Shown: positions 7,557-52,006 of the stretch, in pieces
Numbering within the stretch: position 1 is the first letter of the stretch
How the letters are laid out: each line of letters opens with the position of its first letter
Origin: a virus
Virus record (IMG/VR): IMGVR_UViG_3300033149_002985
Location: 28,966 to 92,965 of that record
Strand: one strand, 5' to 3'
DNA length: 64,000 bases
Made by a program: the position numbers and the translations under genes
Notes under the pieces: generated by a model
Told to the model about the DNA's origin: nothing
The model's database searches: none
Seen by the model: only the letters and a program-made list of their open reading frames with translations

Positions 7557-8067
7557 TCCTATTTATAAATATATTATTAAACGTCTTTGGGAACAAGATG
7601 AAGCTAATAGGCTAGAAACTTTATCTACAAATGATATTGCTGTAAAGAATGTAGAATTGCGAAAACAAGCTCAAGTTTTACTTTCTGTATTTAAAAAACT
7701 TAGAGATCTTTCTTCTGATTGGGAATATATGGATAGTTTAATTGTAAATGAAGAAACAAAATATTTATATAAACAATGGGAGATAGAGATTGTCTCGGTA
7801 AGTTTTGTTCAATTAGAATATGTTACCCATATATTATTACCACTTATAAGTTATAATATTATATATGATGAACCTATTACCAATGATTTAGATTTTTATA
7901 ACACTGGATTGGAATTAAAAAATAATTTCTTTTATGATATGAAAGGAGAAACTTTGATATTAAAAGCTTCTGTTTTGATAGAAAAGGTATATGGAACTGA
8001 GGAATTAGTAGTTCCACAAGTAAAACTATTAGTTGATATTGATAGTTCTTTTTTAGAATTACATTAA
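7549..8067 (+). CDS. Putative virion protein, last + strand gene
   Basis: ORF track; TAA stop shared with the convergent gene (TTAA 8064-8067). Confidence 0.5.
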   Translation: MSNPIYKYIIKRLWEQDEANRLETLSTNDIAVKNVELRKQAQVLLSVFKKLRDLSSDWEYMDSLIVNEETKYLYKQWEIEIVSVSFVQLEYVTHILLPLISYNIIYDEPITNDLDFYNTGLELKNNFFYDMKGETLILKASVLIEKVYGTEELVVPQVKLLVDIDSSFLELH

Positions 8068-8465
8068 TTTTTAGGTTTCATTTTAGGAGTAATATTTTTA
8101 TCCCATTTTCCCTTATGCCAACTTCCGTCTTTCTGTCCTTGATTTTCCTCGCCATAGTTTACTAGTTTAGTATAAACTTTTCCTTCCTGAAAATCATAAA
8201 CAGTCTGATATACGTTATTTTTCCATTTTCCCATAATAATGACATAAGGAATAGTTTTAAACCCTATATTTACCCCATCAACCCTGGCTACAATGTGCCC
8301 ATATGCTTCAAATCCTTCTAATACGAGGACTTTTTTAGTTAAACTATACTCAATCCTAATAATTGGTTTATCAGGCATTTTATCCCATTTACTGTCTGAA
8401 TAATGTCCTCCTTGCCACTCTGTTCCATCTTCAAAAAATACTAAATATGAAGTGTTATTTAACAT
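8064..8465 (-). CDS. Hypothetical protein, last gene of the - strand block
   Basis: 133-aa ORF with upstream AAGGA RBS. Confidence 0.6.
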   Translation of the reverse strand: MLNNTSYLVFFEDGTEWQGGHYSDSKWDKMPDKPIIRIEYSLTKKVLVLEGFEAYGHIVARVDGVNIGFKTIPYVIIMGKWKNNVYQTVYDFQEGKVYTKLVNYGEENQGQKDGSWHKGKWDKNITPKMKPKN

Positions 8466-31753: not shown

Positions 31754-32884
31754 TCATAATTTAATCCTTTCCAAACATTCTTCCGTAATTGGATTGTTGC
31801 AAGTTGGGCAAATTTTCGATTCTTCTAATAATCGTTTATATTCAGTTTCTTGTCCTTCAAATTCTATCTCAACTTCCTCTAATGCTATTTCTGTTTCTTT
31901 TTTTGTCTGACTTAGAGCATTATTATCCTTAATCCACGATTTTAAGGTGTTTAACCTCTCTATTTTAGCTTGTAATGGGATAAAATCAACCTCAGTTAAG
32001 CGAATTTCGCCTATTTTAGCCCGTATATCCTTTATTTCCTTTTCATTGCTTACAAGCGATTCTCGCAAGGATTCTAGTTTCTCTAATTTCTTTGCTTTTT
32101 GTATTGCTTGGTTAAAAATTTCAACATTAACAGTCTTAATACTTTTCAACTGTTCTTTGGCAATTTCTATTTCTTCTTCATTAATTTCTAACTCTTCTTG
32201 AATTTTGGTTAATTTATCCAATCTTTCTTTTAATTTCTTAACCCTTTCATAATGAATCTTAAAACTATCAACAATCTTTTGGTAATTGTTCCTTTCTTTT
32301 TCTATCTCAATCAAATCGTCTTTAGATTTTTCTACTATTTCATCTTGAGATTTAACTGAACGCCCTACATTTAATAAACTCTTATTGAAAGCCCCTAATA
32401 ATTTATCTTGTAATTCATTTCCTGTTAATAAATTAAATAACTTCATCCTAAAAGAACCAGGCTTATCCAACAAAAAGGGTAACGTAATTTGCTCTGCTAT
32501 GTTTAAATTTATAGATTCTTTATCGATTTCTATAGGGTTTAAATTAATAACATCTTTAATTTCTTGAGGAATTTCTTTACCTATAGAATTAAATTCGGAT
32601 TCTTTTCCATTAACAGTTAAAATATACCTATTTATTGATGAAGAACGTACTTTCTCTAAAATAATGTTATCAGAGAAAAATATTTTAACGGAGGTTTTTT
32701 TAGTGCCTTCTTTACGCACAGCATCAATCTTCTTATTGTTGACTACCCAATCAATTGAACGGCGTAAACAAGATTTTCCTGTGCGACTAGCACCACAAAT
32801 TACGTTGACCCCTTTAACAAAGTCAATGTTTAGTTTAGAATGTTTTTGAAAATTAATTATTTCCAAGCGATCAATGGTTTGCAT
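31754..32884 (-). CDS. Rad50/SbcC N-terminal half ending in a zinc hook
   Basis: NFQKH, Walker A GASRTGKS, Q-loop, coiled coil, CPTC. Confidence 0.85.
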   Translation of the reverse strand: MQTIDRLEIINFQKHSKLNIDFVKGVNVICGASRTGKSCLRRSIDWVVNNKKIDAVRKEGTKKTSVKIFFSDNIILEKVRSSSINRYILTVNGKESEFNSIGKEIPQEIKDVINLNPIEIDKESINLNIAEQITLPFLLDKPGSFRMKLFNLLTGNELQDKLLGAFNKSLLNVGRSVKSQDEIVEKSKDDLIEIEKERNNYQKIVDSFKIHYERVKKLKERLDKLTKIQEELEINEEEIEIAKEQLKSIKTVNVEIFNQAIQKAKKLEKLESLRESLVSNEKEIKDIRAKIGEIRLTEVDFIPLQAKIERLNTLKSWIKDNNALSQTKKETEIALEEVEIEFEGQETEYKRLLEESKICPTCNNPITEECLERIKL

Positions 32885-44075: not shown

Positions 44076-46106
44076 TCATGGTTTATCCTTTTCTATTTTA
44101 TCTAATCTTGTTAATTTACCAGTTTTCCAATCATAAACCATAGGAATTTCAAATACTTTACCTTTAACTTTTGGTTCTCTTATTTTATCAATTTTAAATT
44201 TTCCATAAGTACCATCATCAGATTCGTATAAATATTTACAAGCAAGCGCAGGTCTTTGTTTAATCATGTTTGGTGCAAACCAACCTGGTTCTGGATGTTC
44301 TTTAGTAGGTTCTTTTAATTGGACAAATACAATTAGAATACCTTTGGCTTTTTCAACTTTTTTTGCCAGTTCTTTAAAAAGCTTATTAGTTTCTGCAAAG
44401 TTTGGGGGGTCTATCCAATCCCAAATTACAACAGATCCTTTTTTAAATTCCACATCATCAACATCATCAGTAACTGTTTCTGGACGATAAAAATCACCAT
44501 CTTTTAAACCCAAAGATAATGCTTTGTTTTTAAATCTTCCTCCATTTTCAGAATAAATATAGTACGGTTTAATTCCTTGTTGAATAAAATTTTCAACAAA
44601 ATTCATAGCAATTGTGGTTTTTCCAACTGCCGTCAATCCTCCTAAAATTATCATGTCCCCAAAATTAAAATGAGCATAGTCATCAAAATAAGGCATTTTA
44701 AAATCAATCGGAATACCTACTTCAGTAATATTGTCAGACCAATTCATGTCCTCTACAATTTTATAATATCTACGTTCAGACTTTAATTTCCCTTGTTTTA
44801 TTAATTGAACAAGAGTAGCATCTATTTTTTTCTTTTCTTCACCTTTGACTCTACCTCCTAATACTGCAATTTCAATATCGGTTTTTGAAGTTGTTCCTGC
44901 CCTACTAACATATTCTAAAATTTCCATTTCTAGTTTTGTTTGGTAAGCATCATCATATTTATTTAAGCTTCTCATCATGGCTCGGATTTCTTGAGTATCA
45001 AGTGGAGTTTTACATATTCTAGGATTTAATCCATGTAAAGTATATTCTACTTGGTCAGGGCTCATTCTCTTTAATAAATAACCACCTAAACTAGTAAAAA
45101 AAGAATTTCTTCCATCCCCATCATCCAATAAATCTAAATGAATAACTTCTGCTTTTATATTGTTATTAGCTTCTGCTAATGTGTGATTATCATCATAAGT
45201 CTGAGTAGGAGCATGTTCTATCAATAAATCTTCTAGAACTTCTGGCATTTGTGAAATAGGATTATCATTTATAAATCTTCTAGAGGCATATCCAACAATA
45301 CGTTTTCGCTTTACTTCATTTTCAATATATTCTTCTTTAACAGCTACTTCTGGAGCAGGTTCTACTACTATTTGTCCACCATCATTTTCTACATCTATAG
45401 CATAAGCATCAAATTTAATTCGACATTTTCTAATATTAATATATTTATAAATTAAATGAAACCCTCCTAATGTTTCTTGAATCCAAGGATCTCCCATTAT
45501 TTTTTTAATTTCCTCTGGAATTTTCTTTTTAGCTAAAATTTTATCTTTAACTTTTTGTGGAGTATCTTCTTTCACCAATAAAATTTTTTCTTCATTTGTT
45601 AAAATATCGATATCAACAACTGTTATTCCACTGACTTCTCCTGTTCTTACTCCTACGTTCAATCCATTAACAATCCAACTTGCCCATTCTTCTTTATTTC
45701 GATTTTCTTTATTTGTCCAATTACTTTGGACTGGATTTTTATCTTTTTTCGCAAGAGGTACTAAACAAAAATTCTCTTTTTCATATCTGTTTAAAATAGC
45801 TTCTAATTTTTCTTGATCCTTTTTTGTTTGTACATCTAATTCTAAAAGACCTCGTAAATATTCTAAAATCTCCTCATCGGAATCATTTCTACATTCGTGT
45901 TCTCTAACAAGTTCAATTAAATTAAATTTTTTATGAGAACATTTTAAACAATTAATCAAAGAAGTATTCGGAATAACACTAGCTGTTAGATCATGAGTAT
46001 CACAATATGGACATTCCAACATAATTATATTTCCAGTTTTTTTCGCTGGATATCCAATTTTTTTACAATATTCTAATATTTTTGATAAAATAATTTGACG
46101 GTACAC
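44076..46106 (-). CDS. Zn-finger / bifunctional primase-polymerase / PriCT / helicase fusion
   Basis: CPYC..C.KC, NVGVRTG.VSG..VVDID, GGFH, GRN, Walker A GGLTAVGKTT. Confidence 0.85.
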   Translation of the reverse strand: MYRQIILSKILEYCKKIGYPAKKTGNIIMLECPYCDTHDLTASVIPNTSLINCLKCSHKKFNLIELVREHECRNDSDEEILEYLRGLLELDVQTKKDQEKLEAILNRYEKENFCLVPLAKKDKNPVQSNWTNKENRNKEEWASWIVNGLNVGVRTGEVSGITVVDIDILTNEEKILLVKEDTPQKVKDKILAKKKIPEEIKKIMGDPWIQETLGGFHLIYKYINIRKCRIKFDAYAIDVENDGGQIVVEPAPEVAVKEEYIENEVKRKRIVGYASRRFINDNPISQMPEVLEDLLIEHAPTQTYDDNHTLAEANNNIKAEVIHLDLLDDGDGRNSFFTSLGGYLLKRMSPDQVEYTLHGLNPRICKTPLDTQEIRAMMRSLNKYDDAYQTKLEMEILEYVSRAGTTSKTDIEIAVLGGRVKGEEKKKIDATLVQLIKQGKLKSERRYYKIVEDMNWSDNITEVGIPIDFKMPYFDDYAHFNFGDMIILGGLTAVGKTTIAMNFVENFIQQGIKPYYIYSENGGRFKNKALSLGLKDGDFYRPETVTDDVDDVEFKKGSVVIWDWIDPPNFAETNKLFKELAKKVEKAKGILIVFVQLKEPTKEHPEPGWFAPNMIKQRPALACKYLYESDDGTYGKFKIDKIREPKVKGKVFEIPMVYDWKTGKLTRLDKIEKDKP

Positions 46107-46989: not shown

Positions 46990-48069
46990 TCATTTTTCTA
47001 TTACACTCCTCAATTTAGATGATAATAAGAAATTAGTTAATAATTTTGTACCTGATAATAAATCACCAAAATTAATAGTTTCAACGGGCGTATGCATTGA
47101 TCGTAGAGGTATACCCATAACTAAAGCCCTTATTCCTTTAGCCTCTCCTGTCATATCAACAGAAGTATAACCTACATTATCATAACATGCTTGGTATTGT
47201 ACTTTCACTTTACTATTTTTTGCTACATTTGTCATTAAATTTAAAGATGGCTCGTGAATCCCTAATCCTCTATATAGTGTCATTCCTTTTCCAAGATGAC
47301 ATTTACCAACTTCCAAATCCATATCTGAACCTTTTCCGTAATCGGTTGCAAAGGTCACATCCGCTTCAATAATTAAATCTGGTTTATGTTCCCTAACAAT
47401 GGGGCGTAATTTACTTGTTCCTGTTTCTTCTTGTGAACTAAACGTAAATATTAAATTAACAGGTGGTTTTTTCTTACTTGCTACTATTTGTCTGATTGTT
47501 TCTAATAAAATAAAACAGCCAGATTTATCATCAAAGCCGTATCCTGCATAATAATTGTTAACTAATTGATGAAATGATGGCTTATAAACTACAGGATCTC
47601 CTATTTTTACATGTCTAGATACTTCTCGACGTTTTCGAATTCCAATATCAACTTGTGCATCAGCAATACTAACAATGGTTTCATTGTCTTCATCATTGAC
47701 TAAGTGTGCATGCTTTCTGTTTACAACCGCATTAATATTTCCTTTGTTACCCAAAATAGTTAAATGGCGTGCACTAAGAATTGAATTGTCACCACCGCCA
47801 ATGTAATTAATGCTAATATATCCCTCATCGGAAATGTTAGTAACCATAAAACCGATTTCATCGGCATGAGCATCTATAATTACTGTTCTATCAGTTTTTC
47901 CTGGAATTGTTGCAATAACATTTTTTTGAAAATCTATTTGTACCTTAGATTTAGGTAAAAATTTCAACAGTTCTTGTCGAATAAAACCAGCAATATCATC
48001 CTCAAATCCAGATGGAGAAGGTATCTCTATCAAGGATCGTAATAAATTAAGTTGTCTATTTGTTCGCAT
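46990..48069 (-). CDS. M42 family (TET-like) aminopeptidase
   Basis: SPSGFE, AHADEIG, DDKSG, QEE.G, DVT, MHTP.E. Confidence 0.92.
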   Translation of the reverse strand: MRTNRQLNLLRSLIEIPSPSGFEDDIAGFIRQELLKFLPKSKVQIDFQKNVIATIPGKTDRTVIIDAHADEIGFMVTNISDEGYISINYIGGGDNSILSARHLTILGNKGNINAVVNRKHAHLVNDEDNETIVSIADAQVDIGIRKRREVSRHVKIGDPVVYKPSFHQLVNNYYAGYGFDDKSGCFILLETIRQIVASKKKPPVNLIFTFSSQEETGTSKLRPIVREHKPDLIIEADVTFATDYGKGSDMDLEVGKCHLGKGMTLYRGLGIHEPSLNLMTNVAKNSKVKVQYQACYDNVGYTSVDMTGEAKGIRALVMGIPLRSMHTPVETINFGDLLSGTKLLTNFLLSSKLRSVIEK

Positions 48070-48202
48070 AATCTCTCCTTTTTATACCCAAAATAACATA
48101 GCATTAACTATAGTTAAAAGAACTCCTATGAATTTTAATTTAAGAGTTGGGGCTTGAATTGATACTCCAAAATATCCTATTAACATTAACCAGTAAAATA
48201 AT

Positions 48203-48469
48203 TTATACATGATTTTTCCTTATATCCTTTTTCTTCCAACAAAAAATTGCTTTTATGTTCAATAATATTAATAATGAAGATAACACAAATAAACTAGGAA
48301 TAACTAGCATTAAACTTTGAATAATATACATAAAATTGCCTAAAATATTTGCATAAAATCCTTTAATATTTTTATTTCCTATCATACAAATACCCCATAG
48401 AAAAAATATATTACCTATCCAACCTGCAATATCAGGAATATTATCAATGTAAGATGAAAATATATTCAT
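48203..48469 (-). CDS. Small 3-TM membrane protein (PnuC-like)
   Basis: GWIGN...K...GF....GN pattern. Confidence 0.5.
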   Translation of the reverse strand: MNIFSSYIDNIPDIAGWIGNIFFLWGICMIGNKNIKGFYANILGNFMYIIQSLMLVIPSLFVLSSLLILLNIKAIFCWKKKDIRKNHV

Positions 48470-49032
48470 TATTTTGGCTTTTTCTTGTAATATCCTTGTT
48501 GTAATCTATTCAATAAAGTAATTAAATTTATAGGTGTATAATTAAGATGTTCGGCACTAACATTAATAAATGTACATCTTCTTTTCTTTTGAATAAATGG
48601 TGTTGAATTATGTTGATGTCCATGAATCACATAATGATATTTAGTTAAATCTGGAGTTTTTACATCATGAGGACTATGAACAAATAAAATTTTCTTGTTA
48701 TTAAAATCCCACGAAAAAGTATCACAAATAAAATCAATTCCATGAGTCAAATACCAAGAATATGTTTTACGATCATGATTACCATGCACAAGAATTTTAC
48801 GTCCATTTAAAGTCATAATAATTTTTGCAATCTCTTGGCTCGTTCCTTTTGTGAATACCAAATCACCAACAATTATAACGATATCATGTGGTCTTACTAT
48901 CGTATTCCATCTTTTAATTTGTGTATCGTCCATATGTTTAAGAGATTTAAATCCTCTATTACATAATTTATTAACATTCCAATCATTGAAATGAGAATCA
49001 CTGATGATATATATATTTATTAAAGGTTTCAT
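48469..49032 (-). CDS. Calcineurin-like metallophosphoesterase
   Basis: ISDSHF, GDL, GNHD, H, HGHQH. Confidence 0.88.
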   Translation of the reverse strand: MKPLINIYIISDSHFNDWNVNKLCNRGFKSLKHMDDTQIKRWNTIVRPHDIVIIVGDLVFTKGTSQEIAKIIMTLNGRKILVHGNHDRKTYSWYLTHGIDFICDTFSWDFNNKKILFVHSPHDVKTPDLTKYHYVIHGHQHNSTPFIQKKRRCTFINVSAEHLNYTPINLITLLNRLQQGYYKKKPK

Positions 49033-49042
49033 ATTTTCTTTT

Positions 49043-49693
49043 CTAAAACCATACCCAAATAAGTAAAGGAATTTGAATTAGTAATAATATCCAAAAACAA
49101 ATCTTAGTAATTATAGTATATCTTTTAATAAATTTTTCTTTCCATATTTTTTCCATTAACACTAACCATAAATGACCTCCATCTAAAGCAGGAATAGGTA
49201 AAATATTTGCAATAGCACAGAAGAAATTAAGCAATCCTAATTGTAAAAGTGTAAAATTTGCACCAACATTATTAGATGCAAGAAATAATATATCCATATT
49301 CGTATATGTTTTTACAAATGTAGATTTAATCAACATCCAATCTATTTGCATTCCGATTAAGATTGATTTATAATTTATCAAATAACAAATACAAGCTATA
49401 ATAAAATTAACTGCGATACCTGCTATAAGGATTAAAAATTTCTTAAAATATTTTTGATTTAGAAAATCATCAGAACATTTTTTTGAATCCATTCCTTTTA
49501 AATCACAATATCCTCCTATTAACCAAGGACTTATTCTATAATCAATCCCTTTAATAGTTTTATGTAAATAAGGTTTCCAAAATCCTACTGAAAAAGTTTT
49601 TACTCCAACTCCACATTTTAGCGCAACAAGCATATGTGCTAGTTCATGGATGAAAATTGTAAATAATAAACAAGCAAAAAATTCGAACCACAT
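49043..49693 (-). CDS. M50 site-2 intramembrane metalloprotease (RseP-like, no PDZ)
   Basis: HELAH, FSVGF...GGY, AG..VN, NILPIPALDGG. Confidence 0.92.
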   Translation of the reverse strand: MWFEFFACLLFTIFIHELAHMLVALKCGVGVKTFSVGFWKPYLHKTIKGIDYRISPWLIGGYCDLKGMDSKKCSDDFLNQKYFKKFLILIAGIAVNFIIACICYLINYKSILIGMQIDWMLIKSTFVKTYTNMDILFLASNNVGANFTLLQLGLLNFFCAIANILPIPALDGGHLWLVLMEKIWKEKFIKRYTIITKICFWILLLIQIPLLIWVWF

Positions 49694-50430
49694 TAATTTT
49701 CCTCAATTTCTTTCTCGGTTTTTTCTTCGATTGGATCGGGAATATTTTTAAAAGTATTAACTTTTTCAGAATATTCAATGTCTAATAATTCAGAAATATC
49801 TTCTAAAAAATCTCTTATATCTGAAGTTGGTTCATATAGAACAATTTCTTCTTTATAAGTATCAAATCCGCCCCATAAAACCCCAGTTAATTCTGATTGG
49901 TTATTAAAAATTCCACCACCAGAACAACCGCCACGACTATTTAAATATGCAAAATGATCTCTATCTGTTTTTCTATAAACTACTCCAGAGGATAAATATT
50001 GATGTCCTTCTGGATATCCCAAATGATGAATTTCTTGATCTAAATATGCAGTATATTTTGATAAAACTGCTACTTTTTTATTTTTAATCATACCATCAAC
50101 TATTACATAAGCCAAATCATCTGTTGTAGAAGTAATAATTAATCGTGCTTTCTTATGATCGACATAGAATTCTTCGGTTCGATGAATACAATGTTTAGCA
50201 GTTAATACATGATGATTACCTTTGACTTCATTTATAATAGTGCCACTACAAGAGCCAAGTCTAGCATCACCAACACTAAAAAATTCTACTGTTATTTGTT
50301 CTAATTCTTTTTTTAAACTTTGAGTGCCACTGTAAACAGGTTTTTTTTCACCAAATAAAATAGACAAATCAAATTGGGGTGTTATAATAGCTATAGCAAA
50401 TATCATTAAATAAGATAATAATTTTTTCAT
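49693..50430 (-). CDS. Trypsin-like serine protease with N-terminal signal/anchor
   Basis: LTAKHC, DDLA, GCSGGG. Confidence 0.88.
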   Translation of the reverse strand: MKKLLSYLMIFAIAIITPQFDLSILFGEKKPVYSGTQSLKKELEQITVEFFSVGDARLGSCSGTIINEVKGNHHVLTAKHCIHRTEEFYVDHKKARLIITSTTDDLAYVIVDGMIKNKKVAVLSKYTAYLDQEIHHLGYPEGHQYLSSGVVYRKTDRDHFAYLNSRGGCSGGGIFNNQSELTGVLWGGFDTYKEEIVLYEPTSDIRDFLEDISELLDIEYSEKVNTFKNIPDPIEEKTEKEIEEN

Positions 50431-50891
50431 AATTGCTCCTTTATTCTATCTATAAAAAGAATCCCATCCCAATGATCTAATTCATGTTGTACAACGATAG
50501 CTTCATAACCAGAAAATGTAAGAATTTCTTCATCTCCATTTTTTATTAAAATCCAATTATAGCGCATAGTATCTTCAAATTTTCCTGGTAAGGATAGACA
50601 ACCTTCTCCTTTAAACATTCCTAATTGTTTTTTATTCAAGATTTTTGCATTATAAAGATTATAAGAATTTAACTTTTTTTCTTTTTTTCCAAATCGTTTA
50701 TAAGTTTGTTCTATTCGTATTACTGTAACTTGATAAGGAATACTTATTTGAATAGCACTTAATCCACTTCCTTTGACTTTATGAGTAGATAACTCATGAT
50801 CTAAACAATCAAAAAGAGATTGTAATTCTTCTTTCGTACCTTTGAAAGATTCACTTACTTGTCTCAATGTTTCTAAATTTTCAGTTATCAT
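50427..50891 (-). CDS. def: Peptide deformylase
   Basis: GSGLSAIQ, EGCLS, QHELDH..G.LF.D. Confidence 0.92.
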   Translation of the reverse strand: MITENLETLRQVSESFKGTKEELQSLFDCLDHELSTHKVKGSGLSAIQISIPYQVTVIRIEQTYKRFGKKEKKLNSYNLYNAKILNKKQLGMFKGEGCLSLPGKFEDTMRYNWILIKNGDEEILTFSGYEAIVVQHELDHWDGILFIDRIKEQL

Positions 50892-51469
50892 TTATTTTTC
50901 CTTTTTCTAGCAATAAAATCAACTACTCCTTTTGCTTTAGCTTCATTAGCCCATAAATGAAGTTCTGTATTTTTAGATTTTTCTATATCGTCGTTGGTTA
51001 AACAGGTACGAGATTTTATATATTTTTCCATCATTTTTCGTCTTGGTTTAATATATTGAGACATTCTTGCCTCTTCTTTTCCAACCCAATCACCGCCACT
51101 ATCTATCCAAAGATCGTGAATCATCCAATATGAGTGCTCTGTTATAACCCGTTTAGATCCTGCAAGGGAAATTAGAGCACCCATACTTGAAGCCGCCCCA
51201 TTTATAAAAGTATAAACAGGAGATGCTAATCCAAAAATAGTGTCAATAATAGCAAAACCACAGTCAACCGAACCTCCGACAGAGTTAATCCAGAGACCAA
51301 TTGGTTCATTGTTTATTTCATTTAAACCAATCAAATCTTCACAGACCCGTTTGCCCATATTCACATCTATTGTACCATGTAACAGGATATTTCTTGAGTG
51401 TAATAAGAGTTGAGGTATATCTATCTCATATTCTAATTTGTCAAATTTATTTTTGTCTTTTTCAGACAT
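50888..51469 (-). CDS. clpP: ClpP-family serine protease
   Basis: INSVGGSV, AASSMG, MIH, EA...G.VD. Confidence 0.88.
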   Translation of the reverse strand: MSEKDKNKFDKLEYEIDIPQLLLHSRNILLHGTIDVNMGKRVCEDLIGLNEINNEPIGLWINSVGGSVDCGFAIIDTIFGLASPVYTFINGAASSMGALISLAGSKRVITEHSYWMIHDLWIDSGGDWVGKEEARMSQYIKPRRKMMEKYIKSRTCLTNDDIEKSKNTELHLWANEAKAKGVVDFIARKRKNK

Positions 51470-51478
51470 TAAAACTCC

Positions 51479-52006
51479 TTATTTTTTGACGTTAGTCAAC
51501 CCTCTTTGATAAATAGCATCGATAACATCATTAATACTATTTAAATCAACTTGTCCAGTTAATGCTTTAACAGCTTCACAAGCAGAAGCATAAACACTCA
51601 ATCTCATAATCTGAGCACTTTCTTTTGGAGTTTTGGGATTCATATAATTTTTTGCTGGTGCAGGTATTCCAGTTGATACAGGAGGTACATACGTCTGTTG
51701 TACTTGCTGATTAACAGGAGGCGTATATGGCTGTTGTGTTACTGGTGCAGATTGGGGTTGTTGATAACCCTGTGGAGCTCCGCCTGCTGGTTCAATTCGA
51801 CTGACATTATATTTATTATTTACAAAATCAGCAGTTAAAATAACAGCTTGACCTTCCTGAAATGCTTTGCTTGCAAAATTTTTAACATTTTGCGGACAAT
51901 CTGCCCATTCGCCTTCAGGTTTACGACCTGGAATAATAACTTTAATCATTTCACATCCTGGCTTTTTTGCCGACCTAATAAATTGTGCTTGTACTTGTTG
52001 ACTCAT
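51479..52006 (-). CDS. Putative ssDNA-binding/annealing protein (OB-like N-terminus, P/Q linker)
   Basis: Beta-rich N-terminus, P/Q-rich linker, adjacent to the 5' exonuclease; function inferred. Confidence 0.4.
   Translation of the reverse strand: MSQQVQAQFIRSAKKPGCEMIKVIIPGRKPEGEWADCPQNVKNFASKAFQEGQAVILTADFVNNKYNVSRIEPAGGAPQGYQQPQSAPVTQQPYTPPVNQQVQQTYVPPVSTGIPAPAKNYMNPKTPKESAQIMRLSVYASACEAVKALTGQVDLNSINDVIDAIYQRGLTNVKK

Follow-up and report, generated by a model that had tools for sequence, protein, structure and literature searches.

A 64,000-nucleotide stretch of viral DNA (bases 28966-92965 of the 92,965-bp IMG/VR virus record IMGVR_UViG_3300033149_002985; the whole stretch is termed 'the window' below) carries, at positions 46990-51469 of its minus strand, a real and conserved accessory proteolysis island, with a core consisting of a ClpP-family protease, a predicted exported trypsin-fold (S1) protease and an RseP-type M50 site-2 protease, accompanied in this genome by a peptide deformylase (PDF) and an M42 aminopeptidase. 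Related phages keep the ClpP/S1/M50 core yet lose and shuffle its parts, so that the members of the core look like genes that are separable in evolution, and the island is better described as a flexible tool set than as a proven fixed relay. In the interpretation favoured here, which seems probable if only just, the island is optional cargo that would provide the infected cell with phage-made enzymes of proteolysis and protein maturation in three compartments.

The source record was estimated by CheckV to be 99% complete. The window is AT-rich (~28% GC), nearly all of its genes from ~8 kb onward lie on the minus strand, and matches to the PHROG database are those of a tailed phage (a tape-measure protein, a family-B DNA polymerase, a UvsX-like recombinase and SbcCD-like nucleases), with further matches in the record to a clamp loader, an RtcB ligase and a primase-type protein. 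Relatives were retrieved from IMG/VR with two alignments, the first (A1) of a 36-member M50 clade, which returned 28 loci, and the second (A2) of the primase, which returned 23 loci including 22 relatives and which defines the phage family; the addition of the primase-based search means that the relatives were not chosen by the feature under test. Primase loci were annotated with profile hidden Markov models built from gene clusters, and whole records were scanned with Pfam models (L-numbers below denote loci and G-numbers records; L055 corresponds to G028 and L056 to G019, and L005 comes from record G002). Searches of a GenBank phage set of about 50,000 records returned no nucleotide match to the 4.5-kb region and no match to the primase, and a tblastn search with the M50 protein returned only partial matches, to probable bacterial RseP fragments. 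Because these searches gave none, the family has no cultured relative: it is an uncultured family of ~90-kb tailed phages, with the island located in the replication arm. No description of a phage site-2 protease was found in the literature searched, in which one river-virome paper contains the term 'peptidase M50' a single time, and no description of the M50/S1/ClpP arrangement was found either there or in the same GenBank phage records. Phage deformylases have already been described, and ClpP has been mentioned in large phages.

The enzymes of the island

An earlier note on this DNA, made from its letters and open reading frames (ORFs), had described five co-oriented protein-processing enzymes, the first four of them abutting or overlapping, with a metallophosphoesterase and small membrane genes between the fourth and the fifth. 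This arrangement was borne out in each respect: Pfam matches place all five enzymes on the minus strand, the coordinates give overlaps of 4 nucleotides between ClpP and PDF, 4 between PDF and S1 and 1 between S1 and M50, and the intervening genes comprise one with a Pfam metallophosphoesterase match and two ORFs for membrane proteins of 88 and 42 amino acids (aa). The catalytic motifs, read in the translations of all five enzymes, are likewise intact.

The M50 protease (49043..49693, minus strand; 216 aa; PF02163, 3.8e-35) is an RseP-type (group I) site-2 protease without PDZ domains. Its sequence contains the motifs HELAH and NILPIPALDGG, and residues H16, E17, H20, N163, P166, L170 and D171 are invariant in the 36 members of its clade. 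Against Kangiella and E. coli RseP the protein aligns as two blocks, one on either side of the PDZ tandem, its HMMER alignment to RseP (7W6Y/7W6X) skips chain residues ~128-370, and Pfam returned no PDZ match. An AlphaFold model (predicted local distance difference test, pLDDT, 92.9) consists of a first transmembrane helix (TM1), a four-stranded sheet, TM2, two short helices, TM3 and TM4, with helices at residues 2-26, 82-108, 147-164 and 181-215, strands at 31-65 and the short helices within 111-141; the best Foldseek matches of this model are RasP (9A6W) and RseP (7W6Y, 7W6X and 9J82), ahead of SpoIVFB and the archaeal S2P. Motifs, two-block alignment and modelled fold therefore all agree with the earlier description of the protein as a PDZ-less protease of RseP type, and because the PDZ domains between TM2 and TM3 are absent, it corresponds to an RseP-derived core and not to a full RseP. 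Approximately 48 such PDZ-less homologues were found (193-235 aa, 36-76% identical to the window copy), all of them metagenomic; the next matches, which are also the nearest cellular M50 proteins, are ordinary PDZ-bearing RseP proteins that cover less than half of the query.

Known roles of site-2 proteases are control of the sigma factors of envelope stress and sporulation, removal of signal peptides and breakdown of small membrane toxins, and in RseP the PDZ tandem is a filter thought to make cleavage depend on a prior site-1 cut. The absence of this filter suggests that the phage enzyme acts without site-1 licensing. Small membrane proteins, the toxin HokB among them, have been reported as substrates that E. 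coli RseP degrades (PMC10470546), an analogy which suggests that the phage M50 may act, unlicensed, on small membrane proteins and on signal-peptide remnants.

Two further settings of the M50 gene were seen among the retrieved loci. At L004 5854-8550, L005 5638-8385, L020 5179-7953 and L022 6851-8791 it is the last gene of a glycan-modification operon, preceded by several large genes of glycosyltransferase/LicD, cytidylyltransferase and short-chain dehydrogenase type, and is not linked to ClpP; the 125-130-aa gene that follows it at these four loci does not encode a membrane protein, and has a homologue in the window at 8064-8465, a long way from M50. In one subclade M50 is followed by the gene for a basic, Cys/His-rich protein of ~55 aa (K-C-x-Y-x-K-C ... 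Y-Y-Y-K-G-x-Y-x-C; L045 3090-3257, L048 3688-3858, L049 4493-4729 and L050 7058-7222), which in L048, a locus without M50, follows PDF.

The trypsin-fold S1 protease (49693..50430, minus strand; 245 aa) matches PF13365 (Trypsin_2) at 1e-7, above the cut-off, and displays the motifs LTAKHC, DDLA and GGCSGGG, with a catalytic triad (H80, D105 and S170) that is invariant in an alignment of 25 subfamily members. In the window a hydrophobic segment follows the initial MKK, all 14 aligned phage homologues combine a short basic stretch and a subsequent hydrophobic segment with the H/D/S triad, the hydrophobic segment is conserved in the 25-member subfamily too, and many members of the subfamily have AxA-type signal-peptide ends. 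A cysteine pair (C61 and C81), conserved in the subfamily, brackets the catalytic histidine, where secreted trypsin-like enzymes have their classical His-loop disulfide. The protein is thus predicted to be exported or membrane-anchored and to act outside the cytoplasm, as the earlier note had supposed from its N-terminus; a lack of export, which the note had named as a reason to abandon its view, is not what the sequences predict.

The AlphaFold model of S1 calculated from the 25-member alignment (pLDDT 90.3) has an N-terminal helix ahead of a double beta-barrel, and Foldseek returned 500 PDB matches to it at E <= 0.001. Its fold neighbours DegQ, DegP, DegS-deltaPDZ, plant Deg and the staphylococcal V8/Esp proteases are near-equal (TM-score ~0.6), the matches to DegS cover its protease domain or deltaPDZ forms, and the protein has no PDZ domain of its own, with no Pfam match to one and an end in a short acidic tail. 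Because the HtrA and V8 neighbours score nearly equally, S1 is a PDZ-less bacterial protease of chymotrypsin fold and is not specifically DegS-like. It is also set apart from DegS, whose extracytoplasmic placement it is predicted to share, by the missing C-terminal PDZ domain, which in DegS senses the activating signal. Among 5.8 billion proteins only 26 belong to the subfamily, each of them metagenomic and none from a named organism.

The ClpP-family (S14) protease (50888..51469, minus strand; 193 aa; PF00574, 3.6e-30) is soluble, matches PF00574 over positions 5-181 of 182 (105.6 bits) as well as 104 solved ClpP structures, and contains both the serine motif GAASSMG and the histidine motif WMIHD. 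At the position of the triad aspartate, HMMER alignment to solved ClpPs places a glutamate, so that the protein does not have a Ser-His-Asp triad; a change of this kind, which the earlier note had thought likely in the single copy, is clade-wide, and occurs in the context G/E-E-L-W-L in 12 of the 13 phage copies (beyond the window these include L042, L043, L047, L049, L051, L052, L058, L061, L015, L016 and L019; L050 alone keeps the aspartate). Its retention in 12 copies in a conserved context argues that the glutamate is a selected feature rather than a sign of decay, and the Ser-His-Glu clade as a whole constitutes a natural experiment on the ClpP triad. No ClpX/ClpA-type ATPase (AAA_2) was found in five family genomes, in which the AAA matches are to the clamp loader and the recombinase only, and the phage ClpP would presumably work with a host Clp ATPase. 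A word-based search returned only six close relatives of the protein, all metagenomic. A second and very canonical ClpP (279 bits to PF00574) stands beside the phage-type copy in the 102-kb record G002, at 31864-32403, and either could have come recently from a host or could belong to a piece of host DNA within the contig.

The PDF (50427..50891, minus strand; 154 aa; PF01327, 5.2e-27) is of the short phage type, in a type 1B-like form. All three of its motifs (GSGLSAIQ, EGCLS and QHELDH) align with those of solved deformylases, among them the 154-aa enzyme of cyanophage S-SSM7 (3UWA), and the protein ends soon after HExxH; the lack of the C-terminal helix is known for phage deformylases, and on marine phage scaffolds no metabolic gene has been reported more often than deformylase (PMC3660681). 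In some relatives (L045 and L049) the PDF ORF overlaps that of M50, so that the two are coupled in translation. The last of the five enzymes, an M42 (TET-type) aminopeptidase (46990..48069, minus strand; 359 aa; PF05343, 1.5e-58), matches its Pfam model over positions 2-292 of 292, and its metal ligands (H68, D180/181, E214/215, D237 and H326) are invariant in eight phage copies. Its best solved relative, in an end-to-end alignment, is the MJ0555 aminopeptidase (7.4e-39); the nearest cellular M42 genes are ~31% identical, and three better matches labelled as genomes look like AT-rich phage contigs of the same kind as this one, so that M42 pointed to no host. Enzymes of the M42 (TET) family act on peptides such as those that ClpP-type machines release.

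Conservation, loss and descent of the island

Within the family the island lies between two fixed anchors, a conserved 175-aa protein with no Pfam match at its upstream edge (51479..52006, minus strand) and a 676-aa primase-type protein (PHROG DNA primase) downstream (44076..46106, minus strand), and it is the content between them that varies. The 175-aa gene is present in nearly all members of the family, and abuts the primase gene where the island is empty, as it is at L053, L054, L059, L060 and L064. In the complete, terminally repeated 104-kb genome G028 the interval (L055) is occupied by ~6 kb of unrelated ORFs that include none of the island genes, and a scan of the whole record returned no ClpP, S1 or M50; in the complete genome G019 the island (L056) is reduced to M42 and an MgtC-family gene, and the record contains neither ClpP nor M50. 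Since G028 lacks all three proteases and G019 lacks two, the island is accessory, and its ClpP is almost certainly not the head-maturation protease. The proposal that the ClpP-like protein is a prohead protease, and that the other enzymes help to process structural proteins, draws on the frequency of ClpP-fold proteases among the head-maturation enzymes of cultured phages (the window ClpP is matched, at 35% identity or less, in 215 GenBank phage records), and on structural genes too divergent in this phage to reveal another protease; it is opposed by the absence of ClpP from the complete or near-complete genomes G018, G019 and G028, and by the position of clpP in the replication arm, at a distance from the structural genes, which are encoded on the opposite strand. 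These absences nearly exclude it, and it is regarded as exceedingly improbable.

At most of the other loci the island begins with ClpP and S1, continues with PDF and/or M50, and ends with variable cargo that includes a BT1/MFS transporter, a phosphoesterase, M42, an MgtC-family protein and small membrane proteins; two S1 genes are present in G021, G023 and G026. ClpP is found just upstream of S1, with at most one gene between them, in 11 of the 13 family records that carry ClpP, and the 11 family records that carry M50 all contain S1 (ten also contain ClpP). S1 immediately precedes M50 in the window, in G003, G004, G005 and G021, and in contig L066, which was mis-binned into a Woesearchaeota metagenome-assembled genome (MAG) and has the order M42-g76-S1-M50; the surrounding gene orders are of three kinds. 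The recurrence of the same genes together in relatives indicates that their clustering is not the chance of one genome. Individual losses are also evident: L047, L048 and L052 keep ClpP-S1-PDF and lack M50 (both in a maximum-sensitivity search and in a scan of the whole record), ClpP is lost in one relative, being absent at L057 and from record G018, which has S1 and M50, and the close relative G007, which is 98% complete, has neither PDF nor M42. In more distant phages that carry M50, the adjacent pairs are PDF-M50 and ClpP-phosphoesterase. When the gene neighbourhood was followed through IMG/VR relatives, as the earlier note had proposed, the order ClpP-S1-(PDF)-M50 thus proved common, and the set of five enzymes, from which single members are lost, proved not to be conserved.

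The cargo of relatives extends beyond that of the window. A ~400-aa BT1/MFS-type transporter and an MgtC-family protein are encoded in the island at L006 (11561-12781 and 15905-16354) and also at L042-L057, and both are absent from the window; because relatives carry these genes there, the island mixes proteases with genes for membrane transport. Three short contigs of 25-29% GC (L065, L066 and L079), placed in Marinobacterium, Woesearchaeota and Thermoplasmata MAGs, contain the M42, S1, M50, FEN and phosphoesterase genes of the phage family, and from that content look like phage contigs that were mis-binned.

On the primase tree, the minimum number of state changes is two for S1, three each for ClpP and PDF, four for M50 and five for M42. 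The M50 tree places the window copy beside its counterparts in G001 and G002 (support 97), and the window S1, in a tree that has long branches and is to be read with care, groups with that of G002 (93) inside a clade (99) that also contains G001, G010, G015 and G020; the primase of the window, unlike its S1 and M50, groups with those of G003 and G007. S1 and M50 therefore appear to share a history that is distinct from that of the replication backbone. Further, because the clades to which the island genes belong are virus-restricted or metagenomic and their cellular kin are distant, these genes represent long-standing viral lineages rather than recent and unrelated acquisitions from hosts; unrelated recent origins had been named by the earlier note as a reason to abandon its view, and S1, M50 and M42 were found to form virus-restricted clades. 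The retention of the ClpP glutamate in 12 of 13 copies, of the M50 motifs in 36 sequences and of every M42 metal ligand points to purifying selection on the island enzymes. Gene identities, intact motifs, the export signal, the loss of PDZ domains, the pattern of conservation and the dispensability of the island are shown by the sequences and their comparison, the location of S1 outside the cytoplasm being a prediction from sequence.

Tool set, relay or supply

Considered as a tool set, the island would act in three compartments. S1, exported by its N-terminal signal or anchor and devoid of a PDZ sensor, would clip periplasmic or envelope proteins constitutively, and M50, residing in the cytoplasmic membrane without a PDZ size filter, would cut single-pass and small membrane proteins and leftover signal peptides without licensing. 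The Ser-His-Glu ClpP would assemble with a host unfoldase (ClpX, ClpA or ClpC) and degrade cytoplasmic proteins together with released fragments, the short deformylase would help the burst of phage proteins to mature faster, and the M42 aminopeptidase would turn peptides into amino acids. The parts could feed one another, from S1 to M50 to ClpP to M42, and their net effect would be to remodel the host envelope and proteome, rather than to operate a single fixed signalling relay. The substrates, the partnership with a host unfoldase and the benefit to the phage are in each case suggested by sequence, by structural models and by the distribution of the genes.

Several observations weigh against this interpretation. 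In eight distant M50-bearing phages S1 is found 14-28 kb from M50, beside backbone genes, and for that reason may be a general gene of the lineage and not a partner of M50; three of the eight lack ClpP. The co-occurrence of ClpP, S1 and M50 is explicable by few events (2-4 changes each on the primase tree), and, since an independent-pairs test on that tree yielded fewer than six independent contrasts, too few to reach significance, it is inseparable from shared descent. The overlaps between genes are not specific evidence of coupling, because the whole genome is tightly packed, and the replacement of the triad aspartate by glutamate could lower or alter the activity of ClpP.

The earlier note had proposed a different function, a phage-encoded site-1/site-2/ClpP cascade patterned on the sigmaE envelope-stress proteolysis of E. 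coli, in which DegS, then RseP, then ClpXP act on RseA. In a true regulated intramembrane relay of this kind S1 would make the site-1 cut in one particular single-pass membrane protein, M50 would make the site-2 cut, and ClpP with host ClpX would destroy the released piece of a host anti-sigma factor, a membrane-bound defence effector, a small toxin or a phage protein, thereby switching host transcription or disarming a defence. The match in compartments to DegS, RseP and ClpXP held up, and the relay is further favoured by the S1-M50 adjacency (the window, G003, G004, G005, G021 and L066, in three gene orders), by ClpP just upstream of S1 in 11 of 13 records, by the presence of S1 wherever M50 occurs in the family, by the concordant nearest relatives of S1 and M50 in the window, and by the HokB-degrading activity of E. 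coli RseP cited above. Against it stand the separate loss of M50 in three relatives and of ClpP in one, the remote position of S1 in the eight distant phages (three of them without ClpP), the absence of the PDZ tandem thought to enforce a prior site-1 cut, and an S1 fold no closer to DegS than to the V8 protease. Neither sigma region 2 (Sigma70_r2) nor a ClpX-type unfoldase was found in the five family records scanned, where HTH matches were sub-threshold only, and a search across the family for a conserved small single-pass membrane protein adjoining M50 returned none, the two small membrane genes of the window (42 and 88 aa) occurring also in relatives that have no M50. With no shared substrate, unfoldase or sigma/anti-sigma pair found, although a host protein could serve as the substrate, the cascade as proposed has partial support, and such a relay is considered unlikely.

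A minimal and unregulated phage system of intramembrane proteolysis (an exported S1, a PDZ-less RseP and a Ser-His-Glu ClpP) that removes specific host membrane proteins, such as membrane-anchored anti-sigma factors, small membrane toxins, abortive-infection effectors or receptors, is a doubtful proposition as well; were it true, phages would have a device of a new class, for takeover or counter-defence, at work inside the host membrane. The virus-restricted clade of PDZ-less RseP proteins, with its constant exported serine protease and its usual, distinctive ClpP, suggests that these phages edit the membrane proteome of their hosts. All three proteases are small and are predicted with high confidence, so that the membrane proteins cut by the phage enzymes would be directly testable in a laboratory host.

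A more metabolic explanation is amino-acid salvage, in which ClpP, M42 and exported S1 would degrade host and periplasmic proteins for phage synthesis in a nutrient-poor, AT-rich host, the deformylase and island transporters would serve the same supply, and M50 would clear membrane debris. It accords with the established action of TET aminopeptidases on ClpP-type peptide products, with the BT1/MFS, MgtC and small transporter-like genes in the islands of relatives, with the standing of M42 beside MgtC, without proteases, at L056, and with the frequency of deformylase on marine phage scaffolds (PMC3660681). Salvage is nevertheless judged distinctly improbable: M42 is the least stable member of the island (five changes on the tree, and absent from G007), the constant pairing of M50 with an exported S1 is left unexplained, and no peptide or amino-acid transporter was identified.

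The remaining genes of the island lie between M50 and M42. The calcineurin-like metallophosphoesterase (48469..49032, minus strand; 187 aa; PF12850 (Metallophos_2), 4.9e-10) is a frequent passenger, found in relatives beside M42, MFS or ClpP. The 88-aa multi-pass membrane protein (48203..48469, minus strand) has a sub-threshold likeness to the PnuC N-terminus (PF04973, 0.0024) and homologues in at least six other phage records (L004, L005, L022, L045, L048 and L049); the homologue in L022 directly follows M50, and that in L048 is in a record without M50. The 42-aa hydrophobic hairpin protein (48082..48210, minus strand) is conserved in relatives: the copy in L008 is 59% identical, and L055, whose genome has none of the proteases, contains a similar ORF of 42 aa. 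A scan of the cluster returned fewer promoter-like sites than its shuffles did, and the single coding-strand terminator-like site inside it falls within the M42 ORF.

Neighbours of this kind bear on a further proposal, that S1 and M50 process holin/antiholin-type proteins, receptors or outer-membrane tethers, and by such processing of envelope proteins time lysis or block the entry of other phages. Both enzymes are expected to act at the envelope, and small membrane or lipoprotein-like ORFs lie beside them in several relatives (a 56-aa ORF with an LSGC lipobox-like motif in L051, and 116-aa and 44-aa transmembrane ORFs in L058). The small neighbours are not conserved, the island is situated among replication genes with no recognisable lysis genes beside it, and complete relatives live without it; a role in lysis or superinfection is accordingly given very little weight.

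Additional features were recorded at the edges of the island and elsewhere. The primase ORF, which is 620-690 aa in most of the family, reaches 880-1015 aa in L059 (4667-7714), L061 (10001-13045) and L060 (1169-3805), a length that suggests an insertion, either of an intein or of a homing-endonuclease domain, within these three long primases. Homing-endonuclease genes of a NUMOD3 plus endonuclease-I-like type (cluster c8; L006 6237-6995, and many other loci) occupy scattered sites, including positions near the FEN, primase and ClpP genes in relatives and, in L048, a position between ClpP and S1. Outside the window, eight tRNA genes (Trp, Tyr, His, Arg, Leu, Pro, Asn and Gln) are clustered at L040 4859-5613, in record bases, beside a gene for a NinI-like phosphatase.

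Comparison with known systems

The PDF shares with that of cyanophage S-SSM7 (3UWA; PMC3660681) its length of 154 aa, its three motifs and the lack of a C-terminal helix, and differs in being situated among proteases, in a phage whose host is not known to be a cyanobacterium. The M42 protein matches the TET/M42 aminopeptidases (MJ0555, 9QR6; PhTET1, 2CF4; FrvX, 1Y0R) over its full length and keeps their metal ligands, whereas it belongs to a viral clade that is at most ~31% identical to sampled cellular genomes. The phage ClpP has the full-length S14 fold of the canonical enzymes of S. aureus (3QWD) and E. coli (6WR2), with its serine and histidine correctly placed; in contrast to them, its clade is Ser-His-Glu and is encoded without a partner ATPase. 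The M50 protein has the zinc motif, the LDG motif and the membrane-reentrant beta-sheet of RseP (7W6X, 7W6Y and 9J82) and of B. subtilis RasP (9A6W), but two short helices occupy the place of their periplasmic PDZ tandem of ~240 residues, the protein is half their length, and its clade is restricted to viral or metagenomic contigs.

The sigmaE pathway of E. coli is the closest point of reference for the combination of these enzymes. The phage set differs from it in that S1 and M50 are both PDZ-less, S1 resembles V8 as closely as it does DegS, the phage encodes neither an RseA-like substrate nor a sigma factor nor ClpX, ClpP has glutamate in its triad, and the genes are lost and gained singly. 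What the two have in common is a trypsin-fold protease outside, an RseP-type M50 protease in the membrane that, like the RseP of that pathway, keeps HExxH, LDG and a beta-sheet after TM1, and a ClpP inside.

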